A DNA stretch of 64,000 bases from Trypanosoma brucei (GCA_000002445.1 CP000066.1:1216001-1280000); one strand, 5' to 3'. Shown: positions 4,869 through 60,959, counted from the stretch's first letter. The notes: generated from the sequence alone by a model not told the origin. Made by a program: numbers and translations.

Positions 4869-7262
4869 TCACGAAGAATCCTTCGGGCGTTTGCGCGCTC
4901 CAGTTTTCGGCATGAGTTCGTAGATAACGGGATCCGGTTCTAGTGTACACAGACAGTGCGCTATGTATTCCATCCTATATACCTTCAATCGTGAATTGAT
5001 AGCCGCAAGCTGCCCCTGCTCCCAGTTGTTGTCGTCGGAGAGGACGAAGTTTATGCTGTCGACAGGCCCAGACCCCTGAAGCAGAGCATCCACCAACTCC
5101 TGGGGTGTATACGGAATTACAGCCTTGCAGCCCCCACTTTGCAGAACGCGGGCGAAGCTCTTCGTCCTTAAATCAGTCGAACAACACAAAGCAACAGTCC
5201 AGGAAGCAAACGGCCGCTCGGTTCGGCGCCGTTGAAGCTGACACGCTTTCACAAGTTCAGAGACGGAGTTACGAAGCGACGCTCTTCGAGCCATTTCCGG
5301 GCACCATTCGTGTGGCTCCTCGGGGGGAATGCGATTTTCTTGTCTTGCTTCCTTAATAAACGAGGGTGCGAGCACCCACTTCCCTGCCGCAACGGCACTG
5401 AGAAAATATTCAGTTCTAGAAGGTCTTTCGGTAATGTAGTGTGTGCACTCTTCTACACTTATAGCTATCGTAAGTCCTAACGGCAGCAACTGAGAAAGTT
5501 CCTCTTCCAGATGTAAAAGTGATCTCGACAGCATAATACAACAAGGGGAAGGTGAAAACTCCCCCCGCCCCCCGCGTGGTGTATCGTCAATTTGAACCCT
5601 TTCACCTTCCTTTTCTGGATGAGGCGACACCCCTCTGTGTTCTATCTCTTTCCGCTCGCTTTGCGGTTGCTCCATATCAGCTTGCTTGTAGACTATCATC
5701 TGTGACGCTGGTGGAGTTTCCCGCCCGAACCTTCTACCGCACGCTGAAGAAGCAAGGGCATTAAAGGACACCTCTACATTGCAGGCGCATACGTCCCCCT
5801 CGCCCCGATCCTCTGCAGACCTACTTTGTGCCTGTCCCACACCCACAGCAGGTGACGTAGGCGTGACACTGGTTGCATCGGTCTTTGTTTCCAGTTCCCC
5901 AATCAGGTGCTCGAGCGAGCTTGAGAGCACAGAATCCCTCGGTGTTACGTCCTTGGAGAGACGTTGCAAACCATGGCCGTATGCACTGCTCCCACTCCTT
6001 CGCCCGTCGGCCAACACACCAGCAGATGCGACTGTCGCATTCCCCAACTCCTTGTTAAACTCGGAGAACTGTGGTGTATTCATGATGAAAGGGGAGCAGT
6101 CCTCCCAATATCCCGCCACAAGTGAGTGGTGTAGCCAGTCCACATGCACAAAAAAACACTCAATCACCCGTAGCTTATACCTTCGCCAGGCCAATGAAGC
6201 AACCTTAGTTGACCCTGCCAGGCCGTCAGCACTACCCACAACCAGGTGAGTAGTGTTGCTGCGCGCAAATGAGCCAACACTGTTCGCGCCCAGCACAAAG
6301 TCGTCCTGTATAACACACTGCATCCCGGCGCGCTTTAGGGAGTTCCGGAACGCCTCCCGGTCCTCTTGAGGCACAGCGGTGAATGTAATAACTGGTTTCA
6401 GAACACTAGAAACAACATACGGCTTCGCACACACACGCCCGTGACCTTGCGCTGCACACTCCTCGAGCCAGGAAAGTGAGACAAACTCTAGGCCGGGCCG
6501 AGGTGCAAAGAATTCAGTTGTTGGGCCCAGCAACACTACGTGGGTGGTAACTATTGTCAACGTCTGAGCCTGACGTATACCCGAGCGTTTGATTAGTTCC
6601 TTCACATCATCTGATACTAGATTAGGTGGAAAACAGTAGGCAACTGCGCCCGACCTCTCCCGCAGAGCGGTTATGCGCGTCGATATATCCCGCAGACCCG
6701 ATACTCCTACTAGTCCACCGTACTGTTGCGAAAACTGACAGTACGGTTTAACGCAGCATTGGTACTTCCGGGCAAACTGAACCTTAGCGTTTCGTGATAA
6801 ATCCGATATTCTGCTTGGAACAACTAATACTGAACATCTCCGGGTCATTTCGGGAGAGTACCTAGCTTGATGAGTCTCGCAAATTCTTTGCACCATCTGT
6901 CGTTCCGCAACATCCAATGAAGTTGTACACACCTCCAGCCCTCGAAGTGAGTAGTCAATCCCAAACTCACTTACTCGATCCATCGAGCAGTTGCCTGACA
7001 GCACCCACTCTGGTGTAACACATGGAATCCCGTGTACCTTAGCCAAAGCATATTTTTTCCCTTCGGTACTCCTGGCAACCAACACATTGGTCCTGTCCGT
7101 CAGTGTTTCTGTGTATGTCATACCTTGCTGCTCCAGCTTAGATTTAATGAGTTCCAGGTCATTTCCAGATATCGCTGTTGTTGTAACAAGCATGTATTTC
7201 GGTATATGGCACCCACGAGAGACGAAGACCACCCTCTCGTGGCTTATGGAAGAAACGTACAT
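4869..7262 (-). CDS. BRCT-repeat protein (multi-BRCT, TopBP1/Dpb11-like architecture), 797 aa
   Basis: The N-terminal segment LIKSKLEQQGMTYTETLTDRTNVLVAR...AKVHGIPCVTPEWVL is a canonical BRCT fold signature. Further BRCT-like blocks follow (VVPSRISDL...KPY; LAPSFIKEA...). A long acidic/serine-rich linker is present. Confidence 0.55.
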   Translation of the reverse strand: MYVSSISHERVVFVSRGCHIPKYMLVTTTAISGNDLELIKSKLEQQGMTYTETLTDRTNVLVARSTEGKKYALAKVHGIPCVTPEWVLSGNCSMDRVSEFGIDYSLRGLEVCTTSLDVAERQMVQRICETHQARYSPEMTRRCSVLVVPSRISDLSRNAKVQFARKYQCCVKPYCQFSQQYGGLVGVSGLRDISTRITALRERSGAVAYCFPPNLVSDDVKELIKRSGIRQAQTLTIVTTHVVLLGPTTEFFAPRPGLEFVSLSWLEECAAQGHGRVCAKPYVVSSVLKPVITFTAVPQEDREAFRNSLKRAGMQCVIQDDFVLGANSVGSFARSNTTHLVVGSADGLAGSTKVASLAWRRYKLRVIECFFVHVDWLHHSLVAGYWEDCSPFIMNTPQFSEFNKELGNATVASAGVLADGRRSGSSAYGHGLQRLSKDVTPRDSVLSSSLEHLIGELETKTDATSVTPTSPAVGVGQAQSRSAEDRGEGDVCACNVEVSFNALASSACGRRFGRETPPASQMIVYKQADMEQPQSERKEIEHRGVSPHPEKEGERVQIDDTPRGGRGEFSPSPCCIMLSRSLLHLEEELSQLLPLGLTIAISVEECTHYITERPSRTEYFLSAVAAGKWVLAPSFIKEARQENRIPPEEPHEWCPEMARRASLRNSVSELVKACQLQRRRTERPFASWTVALCCSTDLRTKSFARVLQSGGCKAVIPYTPQELVDALLQGSGPVDSINFVLSDDNNWEQGQLAAINSRLKVYRMEYIAHCLCTLEPDPVIYELMPKTGARKRPKDSS

Positions 7263-11813: not shown

Positions 11814-13331
11814 CTAATATGCTCTGCCTCGGTCAAGATTTGGAGGCGACCACTCATTAACGATAAGTTCGGGGAAAACATTAGGTTTCAAAGTTGAAGT
11901 ACCAAGAAGCATATTGACACACTCTTGGAACCCTTGGGTTATTGCAGGGTAAGCTGTATGGAGCTGACTCAGGTTATAAATCGATTCGCGATTATGAATT
12001 GCCAATGAAGCCAACTCAATAATGCTGCTTGCATGCGGTCCAACAGCTCGCACACCAAGAACCTGCATTTTGTGATCATTTGTAACGATAAGCTTCACAA
12101 AACCGCTCGTATTGCCCATTGCGAGGGCCCGACCCACAAATTCATAACCGTACCTGGCCACCTTGTATGCTATGTGTTCCTTCCTGCATTGTTGCTCATT
12201 GCGACCTACAGCGGCCACCTCCTGATCAAGAAACATAATCGTCGACAGATTGTCCAGGCGTTGAATAAGTTCTCCCTCCGGATATGGACGATACATATGC
12301 TCAATACAGGAACGCGCTTCCAACTCCCCAACGTTAACAAGCGCCACCCTTGAGCCGACATCACCACACGCATAAATATGCTTGTGTGGAACAACGCAAT
12401 AAAACTGGTCACGCTGGATTCGACCCTGCTTCAACTCAACACCGATTTTGTCGAGTCCAATGCTACCCACATTTGGATCCCTTCCTATTGAAACCAACGC
12501 CTTGTCGACCACGTGGTCTGTTAGCCTGTTGTCTCTCAAATCACGCAGCGTGTAACGGAATTGGCCGCCCTCCACCTTGTTGCTTTGCAAAGCAGAATGG
12601 TGGTGAAAATTGACCATCTTTGCCTCCAGGAGCTTCTGAACGAAGAGAGCAACATCATCATCTTCCATTGGCAATATTCGATTAGACTTTTCAATAACAT
12701 TTACTTCGGTAAGTCCAAAGTTCGCAAATATCGATGCAAACTCACATCCTATAACGCCAGCGCCGATAATGACAATGCTTTTCGGAAATGGTTGAGTCAT
12801 TATATCATCGGAAGTGAAGACAACCTCACCGTCGGCAATTACGGAAGCATGTTTACGAGGTTGAGCGCCGCACGCAATGACAAAGTAGTCGGCCCGTACC
12901 TCCTCAATGCCTCCACCCAACAGTTTAACATCGACACTGTGAGGTGACGTAAATGACCCATGACCACATATAACGTCAACGCTAACCTTCTCAAGCTGAT
13001 GAAGAATCTGGCCGTGACGGAACTCTGCTGCGCAATCTATTGATTTCTTAATATTCGAAAAATCAATACATGGGAGAGCTTGACGGCACTTCATAAAACG
13101 ATTGGCGGTTTGGCCGTTCATAAGGCGGACGAATTTTGCCATTTCCCATAACGTCTTCGACTGTAGCGCACCGTTCCAAAGGTCAGCACCTCCAATCCGT
13201 GATGACTCGATTATGCAAGCCCTTTTTCTATAATCCACAGCCCGCAACGCGGCGGCCACTCCTGCAGGTCCTCCCCCTATGACACAAACATCCACATTTT
13301 TCGCCCAGCTGAGCCGGGTTTTAGCAAACAT
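11814..13331 (-). CDS. Dihydrolipoamide dehydrogenase-like FAD/NAD(P)-binding oxidoreductase lacking the redox-active CxxxxC disulfide
   Basis: It has an FAD-binding GxGxxG (DVCVIGGGPAGVAAAL), a second dinucleotide fold (IVIIGAGVIGCEFAS) and a C-terminal dimerisation domain. A LipDH-like H...P...E block (LHTAYPAITQGFQE) is present. Where LipDH has GGTCLNVGCIPSK, this protein has GGADLWNGALQSK, so both active-site cysteines are missing. Confidence 0.75.
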   Translation of the reverse strand: MFAKTRLSWAKNVDVCVIGGGPAGVAAALRAVDYRKRACIIESSRIGGADLWNGALQSKTLWEMAKFVRLMNGQTANRFMKCRQALPCIDFSNIKKSIDCAAEFRHGQILHQLEKVSVDVICGHGSFTSPHSVDVKLLGGGIEEVRADYFVIACGAQPRKHASVIADGEVVFTSDDIMTQPFPKSIVIIGAGVIGCEFASIFANFGLTEVNVIEKSNRILPMEDDDVALFVQKLLEAKMVNFHHHSALQSNKVEGGQFRYTLRDLRDNRLTDHVVDKALVSIGRDPNVGSIGLDKIGVELKQGRIQRDQFYCVVPHKHIYACGDVGSRVALVNVGELEARSCIEHMYRPYPEGELIQRLDNLSTIMFLDQEVAAVGRNEQQCRKEHIAYKVARYGYEFVGRALAMGNTSGFVKLIVTNDHKMQVLGVRAVGPHASSIIELASLAIHNRESIYNLSQLHTAYPAITQGFQECVNMLLGTSTLKPNVFPELIVNEWSPPNLDRGRAY

Positions 13332-14712
13332 TAAAATTATTCGGTAAACCTGATACGATAGCAGGGAAATAATTAGCGGAAGTAAGAGTTTTTCTCAGGC
13401 AGAAGCGACAGAAAGTTAAAATACGCAGCTGAGGGTTATCGTAGAGAGTCAGATGAGCACATATATTTATCTTATGGGAAGTCAAATGGCACACACTGAA
13501 GGAAAGCAGCAACACAAACACCCTATTATACCACTTCCTTCCTCTCAGCGGTGCTTCTAAAACCATTCCCCTTCACTCCCTCCTCCTAGAGCGGACGCGA
13601 CCAGGTGCAAGAGAACGAGAAGGAAAGGCGCAGCGGGCAGATCTGGCCATCCGGACGAGAACACACTAAGCATCCTGACTGAAAACGGCGGTGCTAAGCG
13701 ACAGTGAAGGTGAAAAAAAGAACCACAACAGCAGTGTTACAGCAGACAGCGACACGCATGCAAATTTCGCTTTGCAAGTCAAAGGTAATGGGGAGCGAGG
13801 GGAGTTGGCAAGCGTCCACCGGTAGTGTGGAGCGCGAGGCCCGCGCAGTTCGCCCCACCCTCCATTAACCAGGCCAAACGAGCCAAACAAATCGAAAGGG
13901 GGAAAAGCACGACCACTCCTGAGAGCGACAATATTGCACCCAACCCTTCACACACATCCGTACGGAACCGGAGGCTGCATGAAATTCCGCCTACGGTCAG
14001 CCCAGCATCGGGAATATGGCTCAGCACCGCGCACCCAGCGGTCCCGCCCAGCCCCGCAATAATTCTAAGCAGCGGTCACCGCCCCGACGCCCCCATCACA
14101 TACTTCACCGTCCGAAAGCAAGGAAGCGGCCAGACGTACGTTCAGGCGGACGGGCGGCAACATAGCGCACAAAACCCGGGAGGGTAGTTCAACCGAAGGA
14201 AGCAGCTTCCTCCTCCCCCACCGGAGTCGACGTCAGCATCAAACGAGGAGGAAAACAAAGGAAGACCGGCACCATGCGGCCCCTCGAAAAGAGATATGTG
14301 CGGCGGGTGGTCAAAGCACCCGCGCAAGGAACATAATACTGCAAAGGGCTTTTAGCCCTTTAACGGGCGAGCACAGCCGGTCGGGTATATGACGACGGGC
14401 AAGGGGGCGGCGGATCTGTCCCTAAGAAACGCCGAAGCCATCTTTCACACTCCAGTGCCGCAACAACGCGGTTCCCCCGGGAGTGGGTGGGGCCCGTTTC
14501 TCAGCATGATTTTCCCTCGCCCGAACCCCACTTCGGCTCACTGACGAAAGCCTTTCCGCGCACAGACACCAACAAGAAGCACGACGCGGCAGAAAATCGT
14601 CACAGACGACCACGTAACGGTCTAGCGAACCACTTACACAGTTCCCTTCTTCGAGGGGTAATCCCTTCAGAGAGCCCCTCCTCAGCGGATATCACATAAC
14701 CAAGAGCCAGTT

Positions 14713-14858
14713 CAGTGTCTCACGCCCTTGTTTCCTGGGGGGAAAAAAGCATTGGGAGGGGGCGCGCTACTCGACTTCCCCGGCGCTGGTGGTGGTGACA
14801 AAGCGGTGCCCCCTCCCAATGCTTTTTTCCCCCCAGGAAACAAGGGCGTGAGACACTG
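14713..14858. repeat. Perfect 51-bp inverted repeat (arms 14713-14763 and 14808-14858) with 44-bp spacer
   Basis: The reverse complement of 14713-14763 (cagtgtctcacgcccttgtttcctggggggaaaaaagcattgggagggggc) is identical to 14808-14858. It lies in the ORF-free tract. Confidence 0.9.
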
Positions 14859-17296
14859 AGGTGAAGGAGAACCTTCTGGATGCCCCTCCGAAGTGACCTG
14901 CTAACGACCCCACCGAATAACCGCCTACAGACCCCACTAATAAGCAACTGCCGCACCTTTTCGTTTGGTAACTGTTGATGCGGAGAGTGCGTTTCAACCC
15001 CAACTCCATTTGGCCTGAGGAAGCGGAAAGCATCATTTTGAAGAGGAGAGAAATGTTGACAAGCGCTGTCGTTCTAAGAGGGCAGGCCTAAATACAGTCA
15101 CTATCGAAGGGAGGGGTCACCTGCATAGAGGGCAAAAAACAAATTTGTTCAAGGAAAACCAACCAATCCGAACGATTTTTGATTCTCAAGGGTAAAAAAT
15201 CATCGATACAGCATCACGGATGATATCTAAATTCTTCCTTCGCGCCGTAAAGGGAACCCATTTGGCATCTCTACTGACATTTTCACTGTGTATTCAAGTC
15301 ATCCGTTATTTGTTTATTTATTTTAGAAACGATACACACTTACAAGCGGAGCGCGGCGTCACGTTTTCACCTTAACTCAGCAAGTGCAGGCCCTCTACAA
15401 CCGGAGGTTTGGAAGGGGGCGTTTCGTTTCGTTTGTGCACACCATCCTGCAGGAAAGCATGCCCCTCCACCCTTTCGTACAAAGGTCCGCGCACCACATA
15501 CAGCAAAACCAAGGGTCGAGCCCCCTCCTCTCCCCAACACACACGTAACATTTCAACATGTCGCTGGAAAATGATGCCCAAGGGCAATATATTGGAGGAG
15601 ATCCATTCCTACCAGTTGGATCACCCGAACCCTAACAAAAGCCGGCCACCTTTCTGGGGAATCAGCCCTTGAGTCACCCTCGGCGGCGGATGCAGGTTCC
15701 CTCGAACGTCAGGGAGGAAATCTGCAAAAAAAAAATGTAGTTTTACTCCACAGATCTCTGAAGGTTGATCAAACACACCGCTGTTGAGTTTTCTTTCTGT
15801 TATACAAATGCCCATCGTTGGTGCCATAACTTTCGCCTCCCCAAAATGGAGTGCGCTCTGATGCCACAGGCGTTCTGAGTTCCGCATCCCTAGCAACGGC
15901 TCCCAACCTATTTTCCGCGTGAGGATGGGCACAATTTCAAGGTCACGCAGAGCATACGCCCATAGTGCCTCTTTATTCTGTTTTCAAGAACACTGCGTTC
16001 GCTGGGGGCTATTACCCACATTAGCTCACCCAGTGGTCTTTGTTCTTCGTCCTTCACTTGAAAAATATCACTCTGGGAGCGCCTTTCCATTTGAGGCGTG
16101 TAGTTGTGTTAATGACCGGTTTATCCGGGACTGTGAAAGAACAGGCTTTGCGATCATGATGAGGGAGGCTAAGATTGGTGTTGATGGGCGGAAAATTCCC
16201 TCGCGATGCCGGCCACCTCATCATGGGTCTAGGGTCCAGTACACCATCTCATCGGGTTAAGCCAAGAGCCAGCAGCGTTCTTCTCCAGGGTAACACTGCT
16301 CTGCCCGGCTGCGGCATCATACAGCACAGGGATCAGCAGCGTCTTGCTGGGACACCGCTTTTCATTTGTCGGTCCCTGGGTGTGTGCCAGTGTGCCATCA
16401 GCGGCAGAACGGATGGTGTTTTCCTTGAAAAAGCTGTGCGTCTATTTTTCCGCAACCGTTTCAGCACTGCGATGGAAAGAATATTGAAAAAAAGTGTTTA
16501 ACAACAAGCTTAAGAGGAAAACTCAGTGATGAACAGTGTTGGCGATGGTGGAATTGTCTGTGCTCGTTGATTGTTGTGTGCATTGTGCGAGTGATAAAAG
16601 CGTGTTTTATCTACATGTTTCTTCCGTGCGTTCGTTTCCTTCAATATTATGCACTCTAGCCTTTAGGCGAAAGCCTAAGCATCCGCGCAGTTTCCGCACA
16701 TACCGCAATTTACACTCGTTATTTTTGGTTGTGTACTCGTTGCCGACGGCTGGAAACTCTGAGTGTGAAGAAATCGGGAATCTCTGTGGGGCCCGTGCTC
16801 TTGGACGTAATCTCACCGTTTGTGAAAAGAGCGCCTTCATTGCGGAGATCGGGTGGCCTAGTGGAATGAAAATGGTCAACACGTACCACTTCCCCCACAC
16901 AGGGACAAAAACGTGGTAGTTCCAGAGAGCGATCTGGGCAACAAATATAACCTTGCACAAGGAAGCTCTTTTTCACGGCATGCGCAACTTTTTTCTTTGT
17001 TTGAAGGATGCGGGTGCAAAGTTCGAACAGGTACGTCAAAGGCTTATGCGGGATGTCACTCTGTCCTTCGAAGGACCTTTCTCGTTCCGATACCAGTGCG
17101 CCAAAAACGAAACTTACGCGGAAACGCCTCCACGCGCAAACCTCTTCTCGCGGCGCCAGCTGTTGGGGAGACGGCAACGTCAACTAAGTAAAGGCCTCAA
17201 ACCCGACGGCAGCGGAACGAAAACAGGAACCGACGCCACGCATTCGGACGCCAGCCCCGGCGCTGCTGACCCGTCTCTTTTGAAGCAACACAAATC

Positions 17297-17425
17297 AAAA
17301 ATTTAAATAACAAGAACTTTGTCACGAGGTTAATTTTTCTCTCCGGAGCGGTTGTTGATTTAGAGCAGTTGCCTGAAGTCATGGTTAAGGGGTTCGGTTC
17401 CCCGGTCATCTGTCGTTTTTTCCAT
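17297..17425. ncRNA. Candidate small-RNA/tRNA-like element ~100 bp upstream of tRNA-Ser(AGA); strand and identity unresolved
   Basis: On the plus strand, 17389-17421 reads GGGG-TTCGGTT-CCCC-GGTCATCTGTCG-TTTTTT, i.e. a T-arm-like hairpin, an acceptor-like 3' strand and a T6 terminator. I could not fold an anticodon arm, so it is not a canonical tRNA. Read on the minus strand, the same interval starts ~100 bp divergent from the tRNA 5' end, the spacing kinetoplastids use for tRNA-dependent pol III small-RNA genes. It ends at an Sm-site-like AAAUUUUUG (plus-strand A-run 17297-17301). Confidence 0.25.
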
Positions 17426-17523
17426 AAAGCGCTTTTCTCAGAGCCTTCGGCCGGCGTCGTGTAGCATACATAAATATAAGTACGTCAAATTTTAGTAAAT
17501 TTAGTAAAGAGGTCGGCGCACGT

Positions 17524-17604
17524 GTCACCATACCCAAGTGGTTACGGGGACTGACTAGAAATCAGTTGCGATCTCGCGCGCAGGTTCGAATCCTGCTGGT
17601 GACG
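17524..17604 (+). tRNA. tRNA-Ser (anticodon AGA), type II with long variable arm
   Basis: The cloverleaf was folded by hand. The acceptor is GTCACCA/TGGTGAC plus discriminator G. The anticodon stem is ACTGA/TCAGT with loop CTAGAAA. The variable arm is long. The T-arm is GCAGG-TTCGAAT-CCTGC. A T6 run follows at 17605-17610. Confidence 0.88.
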
Positions 17605-17610
17605 TTTTTT
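17605..17610 (+). terminator. Pol III T-run terminator (TTTTTT) after tRNA-Ser(AGA)
   Basis: A T6 run lies immediately 3' of the tRNA. Confidence 0.7.
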
Positions 17611-17809
17611 CGTCAATTCCCCGTGTTCCGCTGCTTTTGTCCAGTCAACTTTTTTCCGTAACAACAGCGATTGGGAATTGGGAAACGGTACGCGCACCAC
17701 AGGCCAGTTGTGACCACCAAGCAACACAGAGACGCCGCGGAGGACGGACAGCGTTGGGCAACACCGCTCCGAAGGGTGAAAACAATCAGCCGATTTGGGT
17801 GCGAAAAAG

Positions 17810-17891
17810 TGACAAGAGTGGGGTTTGAACCCACGCCTACGAATAGAAGAGAACTTGAGTCTCCCGCCTTAGACCACTCGGCCATCTTGCC
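17810..17891 (-). tRNA. tRNA-Leu (anticodon CAA), type II
   Basis: The minus-strand sequence is GGCAAGATGGCCGAGTGGTCTAAGGCGGGAGACTCAAGTTCTCTTCTATTCGTAGGCGTGGGTTCAAACCCCACTCTTGTCA. The anticodon loop is CTCAAGT, the variable arm is long, and the T-loop is TTCAAAC. It is followed on the minus strand by C+T5 (plus-strand A-run 17804-17808). Confidence 0.88.
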
Positions 17892-17950
17892 ATCGACGGC
17901 CACAACAGATTTGTTTTAGACACTTTTTTTATTTATGCAATGCCAAAAAC

Positions 17951-18031
17951 CGTCACCAGCAGGATTCGAACCTGCGCGCGAGATCGCAACTGATTTCGAG
18001 TCAGTCCCCGTAACCACTTGGGTATGGTGAC
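17951..18031 (-). tRNA. tRNA-Ser (anticodon CGA), type II; identical to the Ser(AGA) gene except position 34
   Basis: The minus-strand sequence equals the 17524-17604 tRNA with a single change in the anticodon loop (CTCGAAA vs CTAGAAA). A T5 run follows on the minus strand (plus-strand A-run 17945-17949). Confidence 0.88.
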
Positions 18032-18112
18032 ACCGCCTCGCCACCACCTCTCAAATGCGTTACCCTTGCACAAGCGATCGATGCCGTGATTTTTTTGTGC
18101 GTTTCTGTGCGA

Positions 18113-18360
18113 TGCGGAGTGTGAAGCGGTTGGTGGTGGTTTGCCGTCCTCCAACGGACGGCCGCCAGTCACTTGTCGTATGAGCCGATAAAGCTGCGCC
18201 GGAGTTTTCCTGGAAGTCCTCTCTGAACAATATAACTGTGGGATGTGGACGCAGAAATTTGTAGGGCTTAAAGTCACGGCGTCAAGTTGCAGTGCCAGTC
18301 GTTGATGGGCGGGCCACCATCGGATAAGAAGGGTGGGGGACACTACGCGCCACAGAACAG
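18113..18360 (+). ncRNA. Candidate structured GC-rich RNA element divergently positioned ~95-100 bp from tRNA-Ser(CGA) 5' end
   Basis: The hairpin GCCGUCC-UCCAAC-GGACGGC lies at 18142-18161. A long-range complement pairs GGUUGGUGGUGG (18129-18140) with CCACCAUCGG (18314-18323). A TTTT run is at 18204-18207. I looked for the SRP-RNA helix-8 AGCAG/GNRA signature and did not find it, so the identity is unknown. Confidence 0.2.
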
Positions 18361-21300
18361 CACTATGAGACTATAAAAATGAGGTAAAGCCGCACATGAG
18401 CTTGTTGTAGTCACTCAGTTATGTGGTGGAGCGTCTCACGAGTCGGCGCGGTGGCCATGGCAAATGGAAAGGACATTGGATCATCACAGTACCATTACAA
18501 GTGCACATCTTTCGGTGCTTTGTTTTGGAGTTAAAGAAGATGGAAGAGTCGGAAAATTTTCTTCAATTTAACACCACTAACTCAGTGCTCTTGAGCTTCA
18601 CTATCAACAGTTTCCGTTTGTGGCTCGTGTGTCCCAAGTGTCCACAAGGTTTGTACGCCTCGGGCCTCTCGGAACAGTAACGTGCCTGCGGATTGTGGAG
18701 AAAAAGTGGATAGTAAAATTAATGAATGTAGGGAGAACACGCCCTATGTACTGATTTTTTGTGAGCTTTTTTCTCGTGTTAGAGACTCACCCGCTCAAGT
18801 TACTGCATTCTTCAGGCTATGGGGAAGGCCATATTCAAGAAAATTGGCTGTGTGAACAGCAGCTGCCTCTGAATAGAGCAGGTGAATCACCGATTGGGCC
18901 TCCATGACTTTCCCACGGTGGGGAACATAAGAATTCCACATATTAATGTCCACGGAGCCGTGCAGATAGGCGTTTTTATGTTCCTAAAAACCTACTAGCG
19001 TCAACCGTGTTGGCACAACAGCGTTGAAGCCGTCTCTAGAGTCTCCGCTGTGGGGAGTAATCGGCGTTTACTTTCCTGTGAGATGCCCGTTCACCTCCAT
19101 TATTTCACGACATCAAAAAAAAAAACGTTCCAAACTTGGTTATGTGGATACTTAATGTTCAAGGGGTCAAGTACACGGGTCGAAAGTTTCATCGTTTCAA
19201 AAAATTTATTACCAGCAATGTTAGGTGTGTATTGAACTGTTTTTTCCGGGAAAAGTTGGTAAATGAATCTGTCATAGGGAAACTTGCCACCTTCACCAGC
19301 CCATTCTGAACAACAGCCCCCAGCATGTAGATTTTGAAATACGCATTGTTTTCCACGGGATTCGCACCGGTTTCTTCTGCGCGCCTTTGTGTTTTCGCTT
19401 ATCGCTCTGAAAGTCACATTTTTTTGTGGAAACATCTGCATGGTTCCCCTCGATTATTTCTTCGGTCCGGGCGCCGCATGTGCGTGAATTTCTGTCGATG
19501 TGTGTCCCAACAGTTGGATTGCCTCTTCAGTCTTTACTGAACCTTGTTGACTTCTACGTGCGCTGCGTGGGTTGCCTGCAGCGTGCTTAGGGTCATTTTA
19601 CCTTGGGATGCTCTCTGTTCCCGTGCCGAAGTGACGGCTGTAGTTGAACCGTTGTAATGAGCTTAAATGATCCTTTGCTGCGTGTCCAAAATGCTCAAGT
19701 ACTATGGACGCCCCACCCCCTGGGATGAAGTTGCCACACCAAGAGCACCGGCCACGATTACTCGTGCGGATGAAGCCGCGGACTTCCCACCGATTTGAAT
19801 GTCACCGTACTTATGGTCGTGTTGGGCGCCGTTGGCGTCTTACAAGCCACCAGCACTTTGACTCATGATGTTCCAGCGTCTTGTGTTTCATTTCCCGGAG
19901 TACTGGTTTTATCTGCTCTACTATACCAAATGTATGCGGTTGCTGCGATCCACGTGAGAAAATACGAACTGCGGTGCGCACTGCGTAAGTCTGTCTAGTC
20001 AAAGCTTTTATTTGGCCCTTTTCGCCGCATTTTCCGCTTGTAAAAAAAGTTGATCTCGGCACACTTTGTTTTACTTTCTCTAAATATTGCTCCAGTCAAT
20101 ATGTTTGGAGTCTTCTGCAGCCTCTTTCCCTATTTTTGGTGCCTTTGAATATTCTCGTCCAGCTAGTTTTTCTCTTTTTTTATTTTCTCTGGCTAGTCTC
20201 GCCTTTTCTCCTTCATAAATTAACTTATATAATTGGCGTTCTGCAGTTGCAAGTTTGTTGGTACTCTCGTTTATTCCGCTGCTTTTCTGGAGTATATCTT
20301 CCCTCCATCCTCATTTTTCCTACGTTCTCGTTTTTGCTGGACCACTGTAGTTGAACGCCGTTGTAATTTTCCTAACATCTGTTGAAACCCATTGAAACTT
20401 CATTGTGATCTCCACTCTCATATAGGTTGTGAAATTTGACAAGTCTTCTAAACATCGACTCACTGCCTTCGTTCGTGTCGGTTTCACGGGTATTGTGTCG
20501 CTTCAGTGGTGCAACCTGGCACTTGTGCGTGCGTGTCTGCTAAAAAATTTGTTTTCTCAACACAGAGAAGTGCTGGCATGGACTAGGTGCGTGGTGAAAC
20601 TACTAACCTACGTTGTTTTATTTTTTTTTGTTAAGTTATAAAAGGAAATCTGGAAAATTTGAAAGGTTATAAGATTCTGGCACAGTTGCCTCCTTTGTGT
20701 CTCCGATGTGCTGGTCAAGTCCTCCATGACTGTGCTCAACTGAATCAAGTATCATCTCTAAGTTTAGAAACGTCGCTACGATTCAAGAAAATGGCTTTCC
20801 CCCAGTTTGATTGCTTTTGCCGCTTCGGAAATGAAGTTGGTGGTGGCCGTCCATGGTCGAAACCTTTACTGGCGTATGCGTTTCTGCCCTTCCAAGCAGT
20901 CAAGTCGCTGAGCTACCACTCACCCCCTATTACGTTGCACACTCCATAGTAATGTCAGGGCCCATATTCCAGATGAGAGGGAAAACCGAGCGTGTTCATC
21001 AATTCTGTTCCTTAGTGATTGGGGCCGGCAGATGATTGTCGGCCTCCGGGGGGAGCAGGCATCAAAGTCATCGGTTCTCGGGGATGAAAAGGAACATCAC
21101 CTTACCCTTCTGCAATCGTGAGGGCACCTTTTCGGTGGTCTGTAGGCCAGCACAGTCATCAAGCACGCTCTACAAAAATAACCCGGACACAATCCCACAT
21201 GGATCGCAATGGGGAGCTAGGGAGCTCCCACAGCCGAAAAGATTCGCTTTGGCAAAGCAACTTCACAGTTACGACGTCAATTTCTGAATTTTGCGAGGAT

Positions 21301-23475
21301 TACGTGTGCCCAAAGAAGCGGAATACAAAAATGAAATATTAACAGAAGACCATAGAAATTGCACGGCCCTGAAAATGAAGACAGAACCAATACTTGAAAC
21401 GGGTAGCGACGGTATGCTTTGGGCCCCGCGATGTACAGGGAGGTATGAAAGAGCATCGGCTAAATCGATGCCGGGCAGGGGCTATAAGTCACATTTCTGC
21501 CAACATATCCCTAAAAAGCGGAAGCGGCCACAAGGCGAGCGCCGGATTCGCTCCGCCCAACAGTTAGCGCATTGATGACCGGTGCCGATATGAACTGGAG
21601 CAGTCGGGAGTTAGCTCCATACACACAGCCAGGCGAAGCAGGCTGCCTCGTCCAGGGGCATTTGGAAGGGAAACTGAGGAGAGCCAACTCTGGGAAGGCC
21701 GCAATAAAGCCTCGAAGGCGTAACTGGTCCTCACAGCTGGGCGTGGCCACATACGGAGGGTGCTGGGTATTAAACTGGAACTCGAAATTGAACTGAATTA
21801 GCGACAGCAATAGAATCATATTCTAAGTAGGGATGTGCATGAATGCTGATAAAGTCATTTTTTTTGTACTTTCACCACACACTACTCGCAGAATAAGAAC
21901 GATTGAATAGCTTGCCAACAAACACAGGTGCACGGGGTAAAGAATGGCTCGAGCGTGACCCAAAGAAAATAGGAATATAAAGGAGGTTACGCTATTGTCT
22001 CCGGTAAGAATGGAAACACAGACGACAACACCAAAAACAGATACACTGGCGCAACACTTCTTGAGCAAAGAGCTGAAAATCTTCTAAATGGAATGACGTT
22101 ATGTGACAATGTAAGCGGAAAAGTAGCGGAGAAACATAAGGTGAAAAGTCTAATCAAAGGAAAGACACAGAGTGATGGAGAGGAAAAACATTTAAGGCAA
22201 GAAACACAGAAACAGCAGCCATCAACTCAACCAATCAGGAATTCCCACCGAGGTTACAAAACACGCAAGAAATAATTGTCACCAGGCCATTGCCGATAAA
22301 GGGACGGCTGCAGCTGTAATATCACCGGGGGCTGAGGAAGTAAGGACATATTATTTCCATGGAACAAGCAAACTAACGCGCAGTTGCTGAGCAAAAGGTG
22401 TGGCAACGGAAGGAGGACCCAGAGCATTTATTGGCATTTGGGGAAACGGTTAAAGAGCGGAAGGACATTGGCGGCACTCGCCAACTTACTGTCCCCACGA
22501 TTAACTCTAAAAATAGGTCCTGCGAAAGTAAAGGAAGGGATGCTATGATGGACGTGGAAACACAGGGCGAAATTAACCAAAGGCGTAGAACCAACCATCA
22601 GGTCAACGTTTTCACACTGTCGGACAAAGAAAAATTATGAAATGGAGCGAAAACCCAACGAGGGCAACCTCACTTCAAAACAGTGCTCGGCGTGGTAGAC
22701 GGGGATTGCCACCGCAGTGGCGGAAAAGTTGAAAAGGAATGGCGAAGGGAAGCGGTACCCAATGTCTATGGCCAAAAAAAATATGAGAGGTCCTTGCCAA
22801 AGCGTGCCTCCCTCCGGGTAGTTCCGGCGAACTCACTGGAAAGCCAACAGCACGGTCGCGAATAGGGGCGCCCCGCACGTAACCGGGGGCTGTGTAGTGG
22901 GACTGAGAATTTTGTGGCAACTCCTCCTCCTCCTCCTACCTTTTACTGAGGTTCAAGTAACTTTTCCCTTTCCCCAGGAAATTGCAGGTCGAATTTTTGG
23001 CATTTCAGATGATGCGAATTATCGCTGTGAGTCGCTTGTGGCATCAGCAGTAAGAGCCTGGAAACGCCTCCGGGTCGCGTTTAAACCGCCCGGCTTCGAA
23101 CTAGCAGTGTGCGACGCACTGGGCCGGTGCCGTTGCGCACACAAAGAGGGCGGCTGCATTGTCAGCGGCTTATTCCAATATTGCGTGAGGGGCATTTCAG
23201 AAACTGCTGAACTTGTGGCGTTTGAGCATTTTTTCATTTAGAAAGGGAGAAAAGATGAGATATCTGCCATGCTACTTTTCGGATGAAGTAAGTTTGAGCG
23301 TTGCCGCAGCCCTGATAATGCGGCGGTGGGAGTGGTAGTGGCTAGATGATTTTAAATGTTACAGTGATTGGGTGGATGCTGTGGGTGAATTTTAAGTAGG
23401 AAAATGCGACCACTCAGAGGCTGCCTCTCCATTTGAGTTGCTGGTGTTTCGCGTTCGCGCAGGATATCCAATGGG

Positions 23476-24639
23476 TCATACGTCCTTCACTGCCCCTACC
23501 TCCGTCCTGAGTGATTGATGTCGCAAAGCGACATCCTCCACCTTGTAGAACTCCTTCTGCACAAGGTTGTCAAGCGCGTCGGCCACCAGGGCTTTCTGCG
23601 ACAACTGGGACCTGAGTTTCTTGCATTCCATGTCCGCCTGGCAGCTTATACGACTGATGCGTGCGCTAAGGTCGGCCCGACCATTATGTAGTTGCTCGAC
23701 ATCTGAAGATATTACCTCCACGTGTTGTTTTACACGCTGAAGGTTTCGAGTAACCCACTGTCTTGTCGTTTCTATTTCTTCCATGAGCAATGCCCGCGCC
23801 TGCTTCGCCTCGTTACCTAAAGTCACCACGGTGCCCGCAGTCTTGTCAACCTTTTGCTCCAGCGAACTGAGCGACTGGGTAATACCGTCAATTTTTTCTT
23901 GAAGCGGTGGAACCCGTGAATAATCCCGTCCTACTGACATCTCCAAATCCCTTAAAGAGCTTTCCACGAGCCGTAATTTTTCACGAAGGGTATCTTGCGC
24001 CTCTTGCCTTGACAAGTCCTTCTGCTCCGCCTCGCCCCACAGGGATGCGATCCGCTCCTCCACATCTCTTCTCACGTCACTCACTGTGTTTTCTATGCGT
24101 TGTTTCGTTCGTGCCGCTTGCTCTTCTCCGTCGGCTCGGATCTTCGCCAGATCACTCAAAAATGCTTGGTGGGCATCTTCTAATGTTTCCTGTACCTTGG
24201 AAATGATGAATTGTTTGAATGTTTCCATATCCTCTAACCTTGCACAGGCCTGCTCTAACCGTTTTAACCGCGACAGCAGCTCCTGCTGCTGAAACCTGAT
24301 GTCGGCCTCCTTTTCCTCTTGGATTCCTTGGGCTAGTTTCACCAACTTCGTAAGGTTCACCATTTTTTCATCGAACATACACACGCGGGCGGAGAGCTCC
24401 TCTACTCGATCAAGCAACTGCTGAACAGAGAAGGCGCCCTTCAACATCCACTCCACTCGTGACTCGGCGGCTGAGTCCACCTGTGCCGACCTTAAGGGCT
24501 CTTGAGGAGATACACTTTCCTTCTTTCGTGGCCGCAAATATATGTCAGTGTAGTCCATCGCTCGCACTGCGTCGGACAATCGTCTTGTTATGCTTTCCAA
24601 AAATAACAAAAGTAATGTAAAAGAGATGTGGGAGAGCAT
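23476..24639 (-). CDS. Coiled-coil protein, hypothetical (first gene downstream of the ORF-free tract on the far side)
   Basis: 387-aa ORF with continuous heptad-like charged repeats (EELSARV...LEQACARLEDMETFKQ...). The hydrophobic N-terminal 27 residues may be ORF extension, and the real start may be Met28 at 24558. Confidence 0.55.
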   Translation of the reverse strand: MLSHISFTLLLLFLESITRRLSDAVRAMDYTDIYLRPRKKESVSPQEPLRSAQVDSAAESRVEWMLKGAFSVQQLLDRVEELSARVCMFDEKMVNLTKLVKLAQGIQEEKEADIRFQQQELLSRLKRLEQACARLEDMETFKQFIISKVQETLEDAHQAFLSDLAKIRADGEEQAARTKQRIENTVSDVRRDVEERIASLWGEAEQKDLSRQEAQDTLREKLRLVESSLRDLEMSVGRDYSRVPPLQEKIDGITQSLSSLEQKVDKTAGTVVTLGNEAKQARALLMEEIETTRQWVTRNLQRVKQHVEVISSDVEQLHNGRADLSARISRISCQADMECKKLRSQLSQKALVADALDNLVQKEFYKVEDVALRHQSLRTEVGAVKDV

Positions 24640-40232: not shown

Positions 40233-41998
40233 TTTGTGGCTGCACCTGTAGGTCCCAGAGGGAGTCCAGCGTCCCTCTTCTGCAAGTTTCTTTCCCTAAA
40301 TAAATAAAGTACCAGCAACAAAAGAAAGGATTGGGGAGAGGGGGGGGGGGAGGAGGGTTAAAAAAAAAAAAAAGAGAAACGAACCAAAATGGTAACCCTC
40401 AGAAGTGAGGAGGGGAACAGCACAATAAGAATTCTAGATTTTCTTCGATATAAAAATAAAGACCGCAAACAACACACCAGCGGCAAAAAAAGAGGAAATC
40501 AAAAAAAAAAAAAGATCAAAAAAGTCAAATTACTCAAACCTGCACCGATTCCTTTCTTCGAGATATGAAAAAATGAGAAAGATAAAAGAAAGAAAAAATT
40601 GAATGCCGGGCAGTTGAGGGTGTGGGTCTCCCCAGCGCCCCTCAAGAAAAAAAAATAATGATCAAGCGAATACATTGACAGGGTCACTTTTCATAGTTCC
40701 ACACAGGTCTTCTTTTTTTTCTTTTTTTCCTATTTTCCTCCCCGTTGAAAAGGAAGAAAAAAAAATGTACATGTATGTGTTGCATTCTTCTTCTTTTTTT
40801 TCCTCTCCATTTTTCTTTGGTTTCACTTCAAATTATTAATGTCGGTAGGTTTCGCGATCGAGCACCACGAGATGAGTGCAGACAGACAGGATCAAAGCCA
40901 GAAAAAAAAATGTTTAATCAAAGTTAAGGCTGTAATGAAAATGATAAAAATAGGAATAATAAAAAATGATCTTAATAAGTGGTAATGATTATCACCAACA
41001 CAAATAGAAAATTAAAAATAAAAGAAAAGACACGGTGGCTCCGATATGTATCAAACGGAACTCCCGCTCGAAACGTGAGTTGTCTCCGGGAGGCAAAACA
41101 AAAAAAAAAAGAACACGGATGTCATTCCATGTGATATCAAATGAAAATAGGACTCCTTCTCTCATGCATATTTGTCTGAGACCTTTTATAATAACGTTTA
41201 CACTGTAAAAAGCACATATACACACACATATATATATTTATATATTTGAAACGAAAGAAAAAAGCGGAAAGTAAACTAAACATAATTATACAAATATCAC
41301 CCATGCTATTGCATCACATAAACCACACGTGGGAGTGACACGCCACCCATCTTCTCTTTTCTTCCTTCTTCAATCACATTCCTTCACTTTTTTTATTTTT
41401 TTTTCTCCCTAACAAGTGCTAATAGGCGGTTATTTCGCGTTCAGAAGAGTGCAATAACAAATAGTATTAAATATAGTTGTATTGGCAATTATCATCACTT
41501 TCTATTTATCTGCTTCCACTCCCCTCCTTATTTTACTTATTCCTTTACTTAATTTAATGTGGCTTCACACCGACTCACCGCTAATATCTATTTTAAACTA
41601 TGCAGTACCCCCTTCTCCCCATTTCTTCTTCTTATTTTTGTTTTCTCGTTCCATACCTTTTGCAGCTGCCCCTTTCACCGCTTTCATATTACTTCAATTT
41701 TTCTTAAATTCATATTTGTGAAACCCATTGAGTTCTTAACTACACCTTCACAACCTTTCATCATTTTGTTTGTTTGTTTCACGCGGCACCCGCCAGCGTT
41801 CCCCCTGTTCATTTATATGATACGGTAAAGATAAAAATCCCTTGAATGAGGGTTTACGTTGTGCACATATATTTATATTTATATATGCCGTTGTGCCATT
41901 TCCCGACACCTGCGCGAAGGCACGGCTGTACATCTGCCAGCAGCAGTAATAATAATGCACAATGCGGGAAGGAATGATTAATGACGCTCCAACGGGCA

Positions 41999-59755: not shown

Positions 59756-60959
59756 CCTGTACGTATCTGACTTGCGGTGATTCCCTGTTTTCGCTTACTT
59801 TACCAACGACTTAACTCCACCCCGCTTTCGCGTCTGTACGCCGCCCCTTCAATGCGCTTCGCTATTTACACCGAATAGTGCGCTTATTTGTATTTGCAAG
59901 TGTGCTACCACGCGCCTCCTTGTGCCAAATTTCCCCTTTCCCTTTCCCCAGCTGCGTACGAGTGATTTACTGGAGTGGGAAAAAAAGGAGAGGAAAAGCC
60001 TCGAAGTGAGTGGCGTGTCACCAACCTATTCCGCTTCCTCCTTCCTTCCTCTGCTGTACGCTCAGCTTGAAGTGGGGGCGACCGCGTAACGTGAGGAGAA
60101 AAAAAAATCCAATATATATATATATAAATATATATCCTGTCCTTATTCAGATATATTGAAAAGTACCCCACCGCGTACCCCCCCCCAAAAAAAAATGAAA
60201 ATGACAAAAACAGAAACGCAGCCTGATACCTGTCGTACCTGGCCTTTACTTCGCTCCTTGGTCACTTTCCAGTTGTTATTTTTTGTGCCTTTCGGGTTTT
60301 TTTTTCCTTAAACAAAAAACCAACCGGCCCTACCCCCTCCCACGTGTAGAGGGGCCTTCACCTCGCTTCCTCTCTCCTTATAATGATAACAACAACGATA
60401 ATAAGCTATTGTTAATATCGTTTTTATGTTGCTTTGATTAAAGTACATCAGTCGGAGATGGAGAGCAGGCAGCGCGCGGGCGTGGGTGAGGGAGAGGGAA
60501 AAATGAGAACAAGAGATTGAAAAGGAAGGAATATTATTGCTGATGACGCAAAGGGCTAAAAACGCACTGTGCCGAAAACACTCCGTACACGTGGATGGAT
60601 GTGTGCCAAATGGGTAATCCCCATGTAAATAATTTAAGCGAGTTAACCCGTCGCTCCGGGATAGGACCTGTCGACCCACAAACGGTATTAAGCAAAAAAA
60701 AAAAGAAGTGGTGAGGAATGGTGAAAATGATAAGCGAGCAGCACTGGCGACTTAAACACCATAAATCACAGCTGCAATCGCCGACAAGCATGGAGTCTAT
60801 AATGCATGCTCCACACACTCTATGCTGTGCATGCATATTGTACCTAATCAGCAAATTAGCGACACCTGACACTTATTTGCAGCGCATACGTGTACTTGCC
60901 GTTGCTTTCCGTTCACCACTGCCACCGCTACGACCGCTTTTAACGTTAAAACCACTATG

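Follow-up and report, generated by a model that had tools for sequence, protein, structure and literature searches.

Where a trypanosome gene array breaks off and resumes on the same strand, does RNA polymerase II (Pol II) start afresh, and does it do so within the sequence just ahead of the resumed array or further upstream? We asked this of a GC-rich segment crowded with C-runs on Trypanosoma brucei chromosome 3, which a preliminary description, made from sequence alone, had put forward as a plausible internal start region. The window, by which we mean the whole 64,000-nucleotide stretch analysed, is from T. b. brucei TREU927, and its positions convert to Tb927_03_v4 coordinates by adding 1,216,000, an offset checked by three features (the open reading frame (ORF) coordinates of Tb927.3.4400 and the splice sites of Tb927.3.4390 and Tb927.3.4380). 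The coordinates of Tb927.3.4400 in Table S1 of Kolev et al. 2010 (1240639-1239476) equal those of the window ORF plus 1,216,000, AG dinucleotides stand exactly at the offset-predicted sites 13350-51 and 15121-22, and the dihydrolipoamide dehydrogenase (DLDH) protein of the window is identical to XP_844031.1 of TREU927.

Table 1. Features of the locus, in window coordinates.
Feature	Position	Strand	Source or remark
Tb927.3.4390, dihydrolipoamide dehydrogenase (DLDH)	11814-13331	-	Pfam; first annotated gene of the downstream unit
SL-addition site of Tb927.3.4390	13349	-	Kolev 2010 Table S12
Tb3.NT.54, catalogued transcript	13442-15120 (Tb927_03_v4 1231120-1229442)	-	Kolev 2010 Tables S7, S12
GC-rich, C-run-rich segment	13560-15100		GC 0.570; C-runs and G-runs both ~2-fold enriched
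Most sense-strand G/T-rich block of the gap	13832-14331	-	GC 0.604; sense GC skew +0.13
Canonical G-quadruplex motif (plus strand CCCAGCGGTCCCGCCCAGCCCC)	14034-14055	-	predicted; G3+N1-7 x4
Perfect palindrome	14712-14859 (148 nt)		arms 14712-14763 and 14808-14859, spacer 14764-14807
Polypyrimidine tract and AG splice-acceptor signal of Tb3.NT.54	15121-15175	-	minus strand ttttccttgaacaaatttgttttttgccctctatgcag/g
Candidate zone in which start sites feeding Tb3.NT.54 would partly lie	15121-15960	-	deduced; upstream of the mapped acceptor
tRNA cluster: Ser(AGA) (+), Leu(CAA) (-), Ser(CGA) (-)	17523-18032	mixed	boundary between two co-directional Pol II units
Tb927.3.4400, last gene of the upstream unit (Tb927.3.4890 to 4400)	23476-24639	-	Kolev 2010 Tables S1, S14

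A catalogued restart site bounded by tRNA genes

The large ORFs of the window all lie on the minus strand, and their succession is broken by one single gene-free gap of 10.1 kb (13332-23475), flanked throughout by minus-strand genes and containing three tRNA genes and no ORF of at least 180 aa. A Pfam search of the open and stop-to-stop frames of the gap returned no domain, leaving a decayed gene or retroelement unsupported; no tandem repeats were found within 13-24 kb, and in a scan of the window at Rfam 15 gathering scores the three tRNAs alone passed. Table S14 of Kolev et al. 2010 gives Tb927.3.4390, at which the array resumes, as the initial ORF of a putative Pol II unit that is labelled "next to tRNA" and extends from Tb927.3.4390 to 4020; the table summarises start sites mapped by 5'-triphosphate RNA-seq, which according to that paper coincide with published histone marks. 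Coordinates for this locus do not appear in the supplements of Wedel 2017 or of Staneva 2021. We take the unit-start status from the published tables, as we do the transcript and processing sites described below, and at the level of the locus the start-region reading of the preliminary description is borne out by a site already in print. Identity of the site with the siRNA locus CTU7 (chromosome 3, 1,120,900-1,132,400) was rejected: CTU7 is the convergent region between Tb927.3.4000 and Tb927.3.4020, and the gap is at 1,229,332-1,239,475.

Genes of this tRNA set also lie upstream of DLDH in five further Trypanosoma species, with all three present in T. vivax, T. melophagium and T. rangeli and Ser(AGA) alone in T. 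cruzi and T. theileri, and the tRNA-containing break 5' of DLDH is conserved in all five. The distance from tRNA-Ser(AGA) to DLDH is 0.4-1.3 kb in T. cruzi, T. rangeli, T. melophagium and T. theileri as against 4.2 kb in T. brucei, which therefore carries about 3 kb extra. A sense-strand G-run patch between the last tRNA and DLDH occurs in four of six species; the T. vivax locus has no comparable patch. When the gap was compared by blastn with the T. vivax, T. melophagium and T. cruzi loci, the matches were to coding sequence and tRNAs only, and when the gap ORFs of other species were searched against the window by tblastn, those of T. vivax, T. melophagium and T. cruzi found no match, four ORFs from the T. 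b. gambiense gap alone matching, at orthologous gap positions. For T. congolense, the closest outgroup, searches with DLDH or Sam50 found no ortholog. As to the segment at 13560-15100 itself, blastn detected no nucleotide similarity outside T. brucei in the loci compared, and its divergence among T. brucei subspecies proceeds at the normal non-coding rate; taken together, nothing indicates selection on its sequence.

Base composition of the segment

At 57.0% GC against 48.8% for the window, the segment ranks first among 625 equal-length windows (mean 0.487, sd 0.037, about +2.2 sd) and stands well above the ordinary intergenic spacers of the window (0.570 against 0.24-0.51); the earlier wording "far more GC-rich" is right as to rank and overstates an eight-point difference. 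It lies 229-1769 nt 5' of the ATG at 13331, in keeping with the distance first described. C-runs of at least 3 nt occur at 24/kb, as against 11/kb in the window, the 500-nt bins in 13.75-15.0 kb hold 14-16 C-runs each (mean 5.6, sd 2.7), and each of the four C-tracts singled out in the preliminary description is found once, at 13853, 14088, 14209 and 14823. Compared with composition-matched shuffles, runs of at least 4 nt are in excess (17 versus 9.0, p=0.003), the excess for runs of at least 3 nt being only marginal (37 versus 29.8, p=0.06).

The special C/G strand asymmetry that had been claimed for the segment did not hold up. Its GC skew in a sliding-window analysis is -0.063 against a window mean of about -0.058, with 319 of 625 windows equal or lower, and plus-strand G-runs are enriched as well (15/kb versus 8.8/kb in the window), which together leave the claimed asymmetry weak. 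A far larger asymmetry of C-runs over G-runs (15 versus 1) is found in a coding-sequence part of the window at 5451-5901, and one of the quoted tracts, ttttttccccccagg, forms an arm of a perfect palindrome, with the matching G-tract in the opposite arm. The real strand bias of the segment is of T over A on the sense strand (+0.26), with a sense G+T content of 0.57 versus 0.52 for the window; within the 500 nt at 13832-14331 the T-over-A skew reaches +0.42 and G+T 0.624, with 16 sense G-runs to 6 antisense, and no sense-strand G-run longer than 6 nt was noticed in the segment. The polarity of the G-runs changes at about 15.96 kb: to the left 54 are sense and 35 antisense, to the right 11 are sense and 21 antisense (Fisher p=0.013, for a boundary chosen post hoc), and the cumulative keto-skew has its minimum at 15962, beyond which polarity reverses.

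The suggested G-quadruplex (G4) potential of the minus strand was recovered: a search for the pattern G3+N1-7 x4 returned one canonical motif within the segment (Table 1), the only minus-strand match in the whole window. G4Hunter regions scoring at least 1.2 are enriched 5-fold on the minus strand of the segment (6 versus 1.16 expected, Poisson p=0.0012), and the plus strand carries 3 where 0.75 are expected (p=0.04).

The segment is the body of a processed transcript

The GC-rich segment is matched almost exactly by the span of Tb3.NT.54, one of the 1,114 novel transcripts catalogued by Kolev et al. 2010, which are described there as trans-spliced and polyadenylated; Table S7 of that study gives it as 1678 nt, on the minus strand, at 0.25 RNAs per cell. 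Its predominant SL-addition site is at 15120, with a dispersion of 117, splice sites being heterogeneous (Table S12). Tb3.NT.54, which is not among the 103 transcripts listed in that study as having no ORF of at least 25 aa, is probably non-coding.

From the SL acceptor at 15120 we infer that initiation for Tb3.NT.54 must lie upstream of that position, before the tRNAs at 17.5 kb. The proposal that the segment as such is the start region is not established: a transcript extending from 15120 to 13442 makes 13560-15100 transcribed sequence past the SL acceptor, and the G-run strand bias on which the proposal relied is no stronger than that of the background. Our reading is that the segment belongs to a broad start region as its proximal, transcribed portion and is not a demonstrated core promoter; we put the probability of this reading at roughly three in four. 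Dispersed initiation inside 13560-15100 may also occur, T. brucei start regions being broad. With the segment placed downstream of at least some start sites by its acceptor, the search for promoter elements moves to 15.1-17.5 kb. Within this interval the candidate zone directly upstream of the acceptor has 16 sense G-runs to 9 antisense and, at about 15380-15560, a patch of GT sequence and G-runs on the sense strand (tacgtgtgtgttggggagaggagggggc...gggtggagggg).

Published work describes T. brucei start regions as broad, without ORFs and favoured by GT-rich sequence, with all tested fragments initiating transcription, and has Pol II terminating just upstream of tRNA genes. Applied to this locus, these properties suggest a sequence of events in which transcription of the upstream unit would end in the gene-free stretch before the tRNAs at 17.5-18.0 kb and Pol II would re-initiate dispersedly along the 4.2 kb that separate the tRNAs from Tb927.3.4390; around 15.1-16.0 kb, we infer, this initiation would probably be bidirectional. 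Tb3.NT.54, spliced at 15120 and polyadenylated at 13442, would be the first RNA released from the new primary transcript, with the GC-rich segment as its body. The sense T-over-A bias and moderate G-run excess would then be the compositional signature reported for trypanosome start regions; this G-run and T bias may help to keep chromatin open, without standing as a proven promoter.

A palindrome that varies among subspecies

Inside Tb3.NT.54 lies a perfect palindrome of 52+44+52 nt, its arms 100% complementary, which is the only complex non-tRNA inverted repeat in the 64-kb window and which as RNA is predicted to fold at -126.3 kcal/mol (z=-15.3). The T. b. equiperdum copy has a spacer that is the exact reverse complement of the TREU927 spacer, and two indels in its arms; the T. 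b. gambiense copy is reduced to 24-nt arms around a 5-nt loop, the central 95 nt being missing. Positions 14723 and 14848 are substituted together, a mirrored double substitution that leaves the arms identical. In a permissive Rfam scan of 13.3-23.5 kb the hairpin gave miRNA-precursor matches only, at 22-32 bits versus gathering scores of 60-105, and the published text that was searched makes no mention of the 148-nt hairpin. The palindrome, which varies among T. brucei subspecies by inversion, deletion and concerted mutation, is a new item.

Apart from this unstable 148-base palindrome, the finding is largely ordinary: the 2010 catalogue already has this stretch, both at the head of a Pol II unit and in the form of a rare processed transcript, so that little biology is added. 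It does illustrate that someone given only the bare sequence can, from its composition, rightly pick out a site of transcription restart in a trypanosome.

Alternative readings

Could Pol II instead start inside 13560-15100, the segment itself being a core promoter driven by sense G-runs or G-quadruplexes? The top C-run density of the window, its only canonical minus-strand G4 motif, the 5-fold minus-strand G4Hunter enrichment and a sense bias in the 10-mers of Wedel 2017 all fall here, and start regions are broad, with every tested fragment of such regions having initiated transcription. Yet we regard this as unlikely, given that at least some start sites must lie upstream of the whole segment, to judge from the mapped acceptor at 15120 and the transcript 15120-13442, that G-runs are enriched on both strands with GC skew at background and no long poly-G, and that the interval from segment to gene is only 229 nt. 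Possible, if doubtful, is that the segment is neutral lineage-specific filler, such as a decayed insertion, whose GC content and runs would be incidental and whose transcription and processing would be due solely to its position between fortuitous polypyrimidine-AG and poly(A) signals. Missing similarity outside T. brucei, the roughly 3 kb extra relative to other species, ordinary non-coding divergence among subspecies and an abundance of only 0.25 RNAs per cell are consistent with such an origin; however, no Pfam domain or long frame points to a decayed gene or retroelement, and the sense G/T bias has the polarity of a start region, flipping near 15.96 kb. Neutral filler is compatible with the best explanation of where transcription restarts. 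That the G-rich patch is not a promoter element but an entry or boundary element for base J, or else part of a replication origin associated with the tRNA boundary, seems to us improbable. Some T. brucei origins are reported to have G4s nearby, but the patch contains a single canonical G4 motif and is found on the restart side, 2.7-4 kb downstream from the tRNAs.

That Tb3.NT.54 encodes a small protein is already disfavoured and in our judgement hardly credible: the longest first-AUG ORF of Tb3.NT.54 (89 aa, 15036-14767) is indeed the first, its AUG 84 nt past the splice site, but it has no Pfam match, and the transcript is missing from Tables S8-S10 of Kolev 2010 (homology, peptides). Nor is the ORF conserved: it is longer in T. 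b. equiperdum (104 aa) and shorter in T. b. gambiense (73 aa) than in TREU927 (89 aa), and the C-termini are unrelated, since the frame enters the variable palindrome. An exact-protein look-up of the 89-aa ORF for further strains returned nothing. There is a slim chance that the palindrome is the functional element, either as a perfect 52-bp dsRNA stem within Tb3.NT.54 that would be processed to siRNAs by the nuclear Dicer, DCL2, or as a DNA cruciform that would exclude nucleosomes. Its stem is perfect (-126 kcal/mol, z=-15) and inside a mapped transcript, its arm identity has been maintained by a mirrored double change, and long inverted repeats are known siRNA sources in T. brucei (Tschudi et al. 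2012). Against this, the chromosome 3 entries in the siRNA-locus supplements of that study are three convergent-unit loci, all distant from the palindrome, with none near 1.23 Mb, although a small low-count locus could escape listing; the miRNA-precursor matches of the hairpin are far under threshold; the concerted arm change is explicable by DNA-level repair without selection; and the long stem is dispensable, as T. b. gambiense does without the central 95 nt and T. b. equiperdum has two arm indels. Slimmer still is the chance that the palindrome is a functional element rather than a repair scar, serving either as a symmetric part of a bidirectional start region, where its cruciform would hold nucleosomes off the DNA, or as dsRNA for nuclear RNAi that would tune chromatin or output at the restart site; were it functional, the flip-flop and deletion variants would translate into strain-specific differences.

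Comparison with known systems

With tRNA-adjacent head-to-tail re-initiation sites (Siegel et al. 2009; Kolev et al. 2010) the locus shares a gene-free co-directional gap and boundary tRNAs, and at this level nothing differs, the unit itself being in the Kolev listing. Its likeness to the GT-rich dispersed promoters of Wedel et al. 2017 (EMBO J) lies in a coding strand biased towards T over A, and mildly towards G over C, and in high sense G+T at 13832-14331; T-over-A amounts to +0.26, whereas G-over-C, at +0.063, equals the window mean of about +0.059, and the segment, GC-rich and not T-rich, is without long homopolymeric G or T. G10 is the top start-region-enriched motif in the Wedel 2017 list, and the poly-G 10-mers of that list (G10, G9C, CG9 and similar) have no match anywhere in the gap; its coding-strand 10-mers number 9 sense versus 1 antisense at 13.0-15.0 kb, with ordinary UTR bins higher (11-17). 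Orientation-dependent, sequence-specific Pol II core promoters are reported to lie inside start regions (Cordon-Obras et al. 2022, Cell Rep).

Tb3.NT.54 resembles the start-site-associated RNAs and the other novel or putatively non-coding trans-spliced transcripts of Kolev 2010 in its low abundance and heterogeneous splice sites, and it carries a 148-nt perfect hairpin. The long inverted repeats from which T. brucei produces siRNAs (Tschudi et al. 2012) likewise show near-perfect arm identity in transcribed DNA, but the arms of the palindrome are of 52 nt, as against 422-10,011 bp. As a small natural case of an unstable inverted repeat at a Pol II start region, the palindrome could serve as a strain marker or for studying hairpin-driven rearrangement in trypanosomes. 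In bacteria and yeast, quasipalindromes and short inverted repeats are unstable in three ways, by spacer inversion, templated correction of the arms and central deletion. Although the T. brucei mechanism is read from end states alone, and the spacer orientation may be an assembly artefact, all three signatures are present among three T. brucei genomes.

The gap and its published unit boundary

All ORFs in the window of at least 180 aa that match annotated genes lie on the minus strand, and at that length threshold the sole break in the array is a 10.1-kb gene-free gap, 13332-23475, containing three tRNA genes. The gene just below the gap encodes a protein identical to XP_844031.1 (dihydrolipoamide dehydrogenase, T. 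brucei brucei TREU927), and the gene after it encodes an Omp85/Sam50 protein; the literature names the two Tb927.3.4390 (dihydrolipoamide dehydrogenase) and Tb927.3.4380 (Sam50).

Published coordinates fix the offset to the chromosome, a position in Tb927_03_v4 being the window position plus 1,216,000. The Tb927.3.4400 ORF (published as 1240639-1239476) thus falls at 24639-23476. The main spliced-leader site of Tb927.3.4390 (1229349; 18-nt 5′UTR) comes to lie at 13349, with the ATG at 13331 following 18 nt later, and that of Tb927.3.4380 (1227511; 67-nt UTR) at 11511. A minus-strand AG lies exactly at the predicted places, read on the plus strand as 'ct' at 13350-51 and 15121-22.

Kolev et al. 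2010 mapped 5′-triphosphate RNA ends. A minus-strand unit running from Tb927.3.4390 to Tb927.3.4020 appears in their Table S14 as "next to tRNA", preceded by the unit Tb927.3.4890 to Tb927.3.4400, so the restart proposed in the preliminary description is already known. Their Table S1 also places a Tb927.3.4400 splice-acceptor site at 1240592, that is, at 24592 and inside the annotated ORF, so the 387-aa ORF start at 24639 is probably misannotated, the true start codon lying further downstream. On either side of the tRNA-Leu gene, the tRNA-Ser genes AGA and CGA together make an inverted repeat of 89 nt, 98% complementary (17522-17610 and 17945-18033).

Coordinates of features in and beside the gap
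Feature	Position	Strand	Description
First gene below the gap	11814-13331	minus	pyridine-nucleotide disulphide oxidoreductase
Palindrome, left arm	14712-14763		52 nt; 100% complementary to right arm
Palindrome, right arm	14808-14859		52 nt; 44-nt spacer between arms
tRNA Ser-AGA	17523-17605	plus
tRNA Leu-CAA	17809-17891	minus
tRNA Ser-CGA	17950-18032	minus

The GC-rich segment is the body of a processed transcript

The GC-rich segment at 13560-15100 had been put forward as a plausible internal Pol II start region. It is covered almost exactly by a catalogued novel transcript, Tb3.NT.54, given by Kolev et al. 2010 as 1231120-1229442 on the minus strand (1678 nt, 0.25 RNAs per cell; Table S7), or 15120-13442 here, with a predominant splice-acceptor site at 1231120 (dispersion 117; Table S12). 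The novel transcripts of that study are trans-spliced and polyadenylated. The minus strand 5′ of the acceptor AG reads ttttccttgaacaaatttgttttttgccctctatgcag, a typical polypyrimidine signal, and 93 nt separate the poly(A) site at 13442 from the splice site of Tb927.3.4390 at 13349, a spacing that fits coupled polyadenylation and trans-splicing.

Tb3.NT.54 is likelier to be a non-coding RNA. It contains 22 AUGs; its first ORF (89 aa, 15036-14767) has no match in a Pfam search and runs into the palindrome, its counterparts in T. b. equiperdum (104 aa) and T. b. gambiense (73 aa) having unrelated C-termini, and the transcript is absent from Kolev's tables of conserved or peptide-supported novel ORFs.

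Composition and G-quadruplex potential

With a GC content of 0.570 the segment ranks first among 625 windows of its length (mean 0.487, s.d. 0.037) and exceeds the window's ordinary intergenic spacers by 6-33 points. C-runs of at least 3 occur at about twice the window density, a marginal excess over composition-matched shuffles (p=0.06), and runs of at least 4 number 17 against 9.0 in such shuffles (p=0.003). The four C-tracts quoted in the preliminary description were each found once, at 13853, 14088, 14209 and 14823; among them, ttttttccccccagg belongs to the right arm of the palindrome. GC-richness, run density and some G-quadruplex (G4) potential therefore stand, but the claim of a special strand asymmetry is weak: GC skew (-0.063) is close to the window mean (-0.058), and plus-strand G-runs are enriched too (15/kb versus 8.8/kb). 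The clear strand bias is instead of T over A on the sense (minus) strand (+0.26), peaking in 13832-14331 (GC 0.60, sense G+T 0.62), a block with 16 sense versus 6 antisense G-runs. Within the window, C-runs outnumber G-runs most strongly at 5451-5901 (15 versus 1 per 500 nt), more so than in the segment; this is coding sequence in a BRCT-domain gene (4869-7262, minus strand).

The expected minus-strand G4 potential proved real but modest, with a single canonical motif at 14034-14055, the sole one on that strand within 64 kb, and six minus-strand G4Hunter regions (1.16 expected) beside three on the plus strand (0.75 expected). The plus strand, antisense to the genes, carries just two canonical motifs in the window, at 40333-40357 and 60478-60498, the former containing an 11-nt G-run and sitting in a long AT-rich intergenic region.

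Where transcription starts

Since an acceptor site at 15120 needs a primary transcript begun further upstream, at least part of the initiation must fall in the interval from 15.1 kb to the tRNA at 17.5 kb. The start-region reading thus holds for the locus, already recognised as a Pol II restart site beside tRNA genes, but the segment itself is transcribed sequence. With at least some start sites upstream of it, it forms the body of a rare processed transcript already catalogued, and is not purely upstream of the start. T. brucei start regions are broad, and all assayed fragments of them could initiate, so initiation may also take place within 13560-15100, whose G-runs are at most putative promoter elements. 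Sense-strand matches to the coding-strand 10-mers of GT-rich promoters listed by Wedel et al. 2017 outnumber antisense ones by 9 to 1 across 13.0-15.0 kb, although several ordinary UTR regions score higher, and the poly-G 10-mers of that list (G10 and near variants) do not occur in the gap.

Around 15380-15560 the sense strand has a second patch of GT and G-runs, and cumulative keto skew reaches its minimum at 15962. Left of that point G-runs number 54 sense versus 35 antisense, and right of it, as far as the tRNAs, 11 versus 21 (Fisher p=0.013), a contrast that is suggestive at most, since the boundary was picked post hoc from a related statistic. Both features would suit a bidirectional start region with its centre near 15.1-16.0 kb.

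From 15962 to 21146 the keto (G+T) skew has plus-strand polarity over some 5 kb, though the genes of the region are all on the minus strand, a stretch that takes in the tRNAs together with the upstream unit's end; an unannotated antisense transcript could lie behind it. At 16184-17303, T. b. gambiense is annotated with small hypothetical ORFs that correspond to the plus strand of the window. Two plus-strand polypyrimidine-AG signals within 13536-13591, ttccttcctctcag and ccccttcactccctcctcctag, could be candidate splice acceptors for antisense transcripts heading to the tRNAs.

A polymorphic palindrome within Tb3.NT.54

The palindrome is the sole complex non-tRNA inverted repeat in the window, with no further copy there, and has a folding energy of -126.3 kcal/mol as RNA (z=-15.3) and of -75.7 kcal/mol as DNA. 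We compared it in TREU927, T. b. equiperdum (L009 6593-6738) and T. b. gambiense DAL972 (L010 6682-6734). With flanking genes aligned, the T. b. equiperdum spacer is the exact reverse complement of that of TREU927 (0 mismatches inverted, 34 collinear), an orientation that may be an assembly artefact, and each arm carries a 1-nt indel; T. b. gambiense lacks the central 95 nt, leaving 24-nt arms (96% complementary) around a 5-nt loop. TREU927 is set apart from both others by changes at the mirrored positions 14723 and 14848, which complement each other so that its stem stays perfect.

An inverted spacer, correction of one arm with the other as template and loss of the centre are marks of DNA-level inverted-repeat instability. 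Judged from these end states, such instability would account for the variants, and selection on RNA structure is not required. Published siRNA-locus lists have no entry near the site, and Rfam returns miRNA-like matches alone, far below threshold. We regard the palindrome as a curiosity within Tb3.NT.54, with a small chance of function.

Comparison with other trypanosomes

Outside the palindrome, the segment differs among T. brucei subspecies by 4-9 positions per 500 nt, a rate ordinary for non-coding DNA, and it has no detectable nucleotide similarity outside T. brucei in blastn against the T. vivax, T. melophagium and T. cruzi loci. Beside tRNA-Ser(AGA), at 17000-17499, the subspecies show 22-24 differences per 500 nt versus 4-13 in the rest of the gap.

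A sense-G-run-rich bin lies between the last tRNA and the dihydrolipoamide dehydrogenase gene in four of six species (T. brucei 16:6, T. melophagium 13:4, T. cruzi 8:2, T. rangeli 8:2), and is missing there in T. vivax and T. theileri. The distance from tRNA-Ser(AGA) to that gene is 0.4-1.3 kb in four stercorarian species versus 4.2 kb in T. brucei, so that some 3 kb is lineage-specific. Opposite-strand ORFs in the gaps of T. melophagium (L004 6501-7535 (-)) and T. vivax (L002 6772-7413 (-)) are mutually related (27.7% identity over 119 aa, E about 8e-12), and tblastn finds no match to either in the T. brucei window.

The array break upstream of the dihydrolipoamide dehydrogenase gene also occurs in T. 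vivax, T. melophagium, T. theileri, T. cruzi and T. rangeli, accompanied by tRNA genes of the Ser/Leu/Ser set: the full trio in T. vivax, T. melophagium and T. rangeli, Ser-AGA alone in T. cruzi and T. theileri. Since break and tRNAs are common to these five species, the tRNA-marked array boundary is old. The sole new item at the locus is the polymorphic palindrome.
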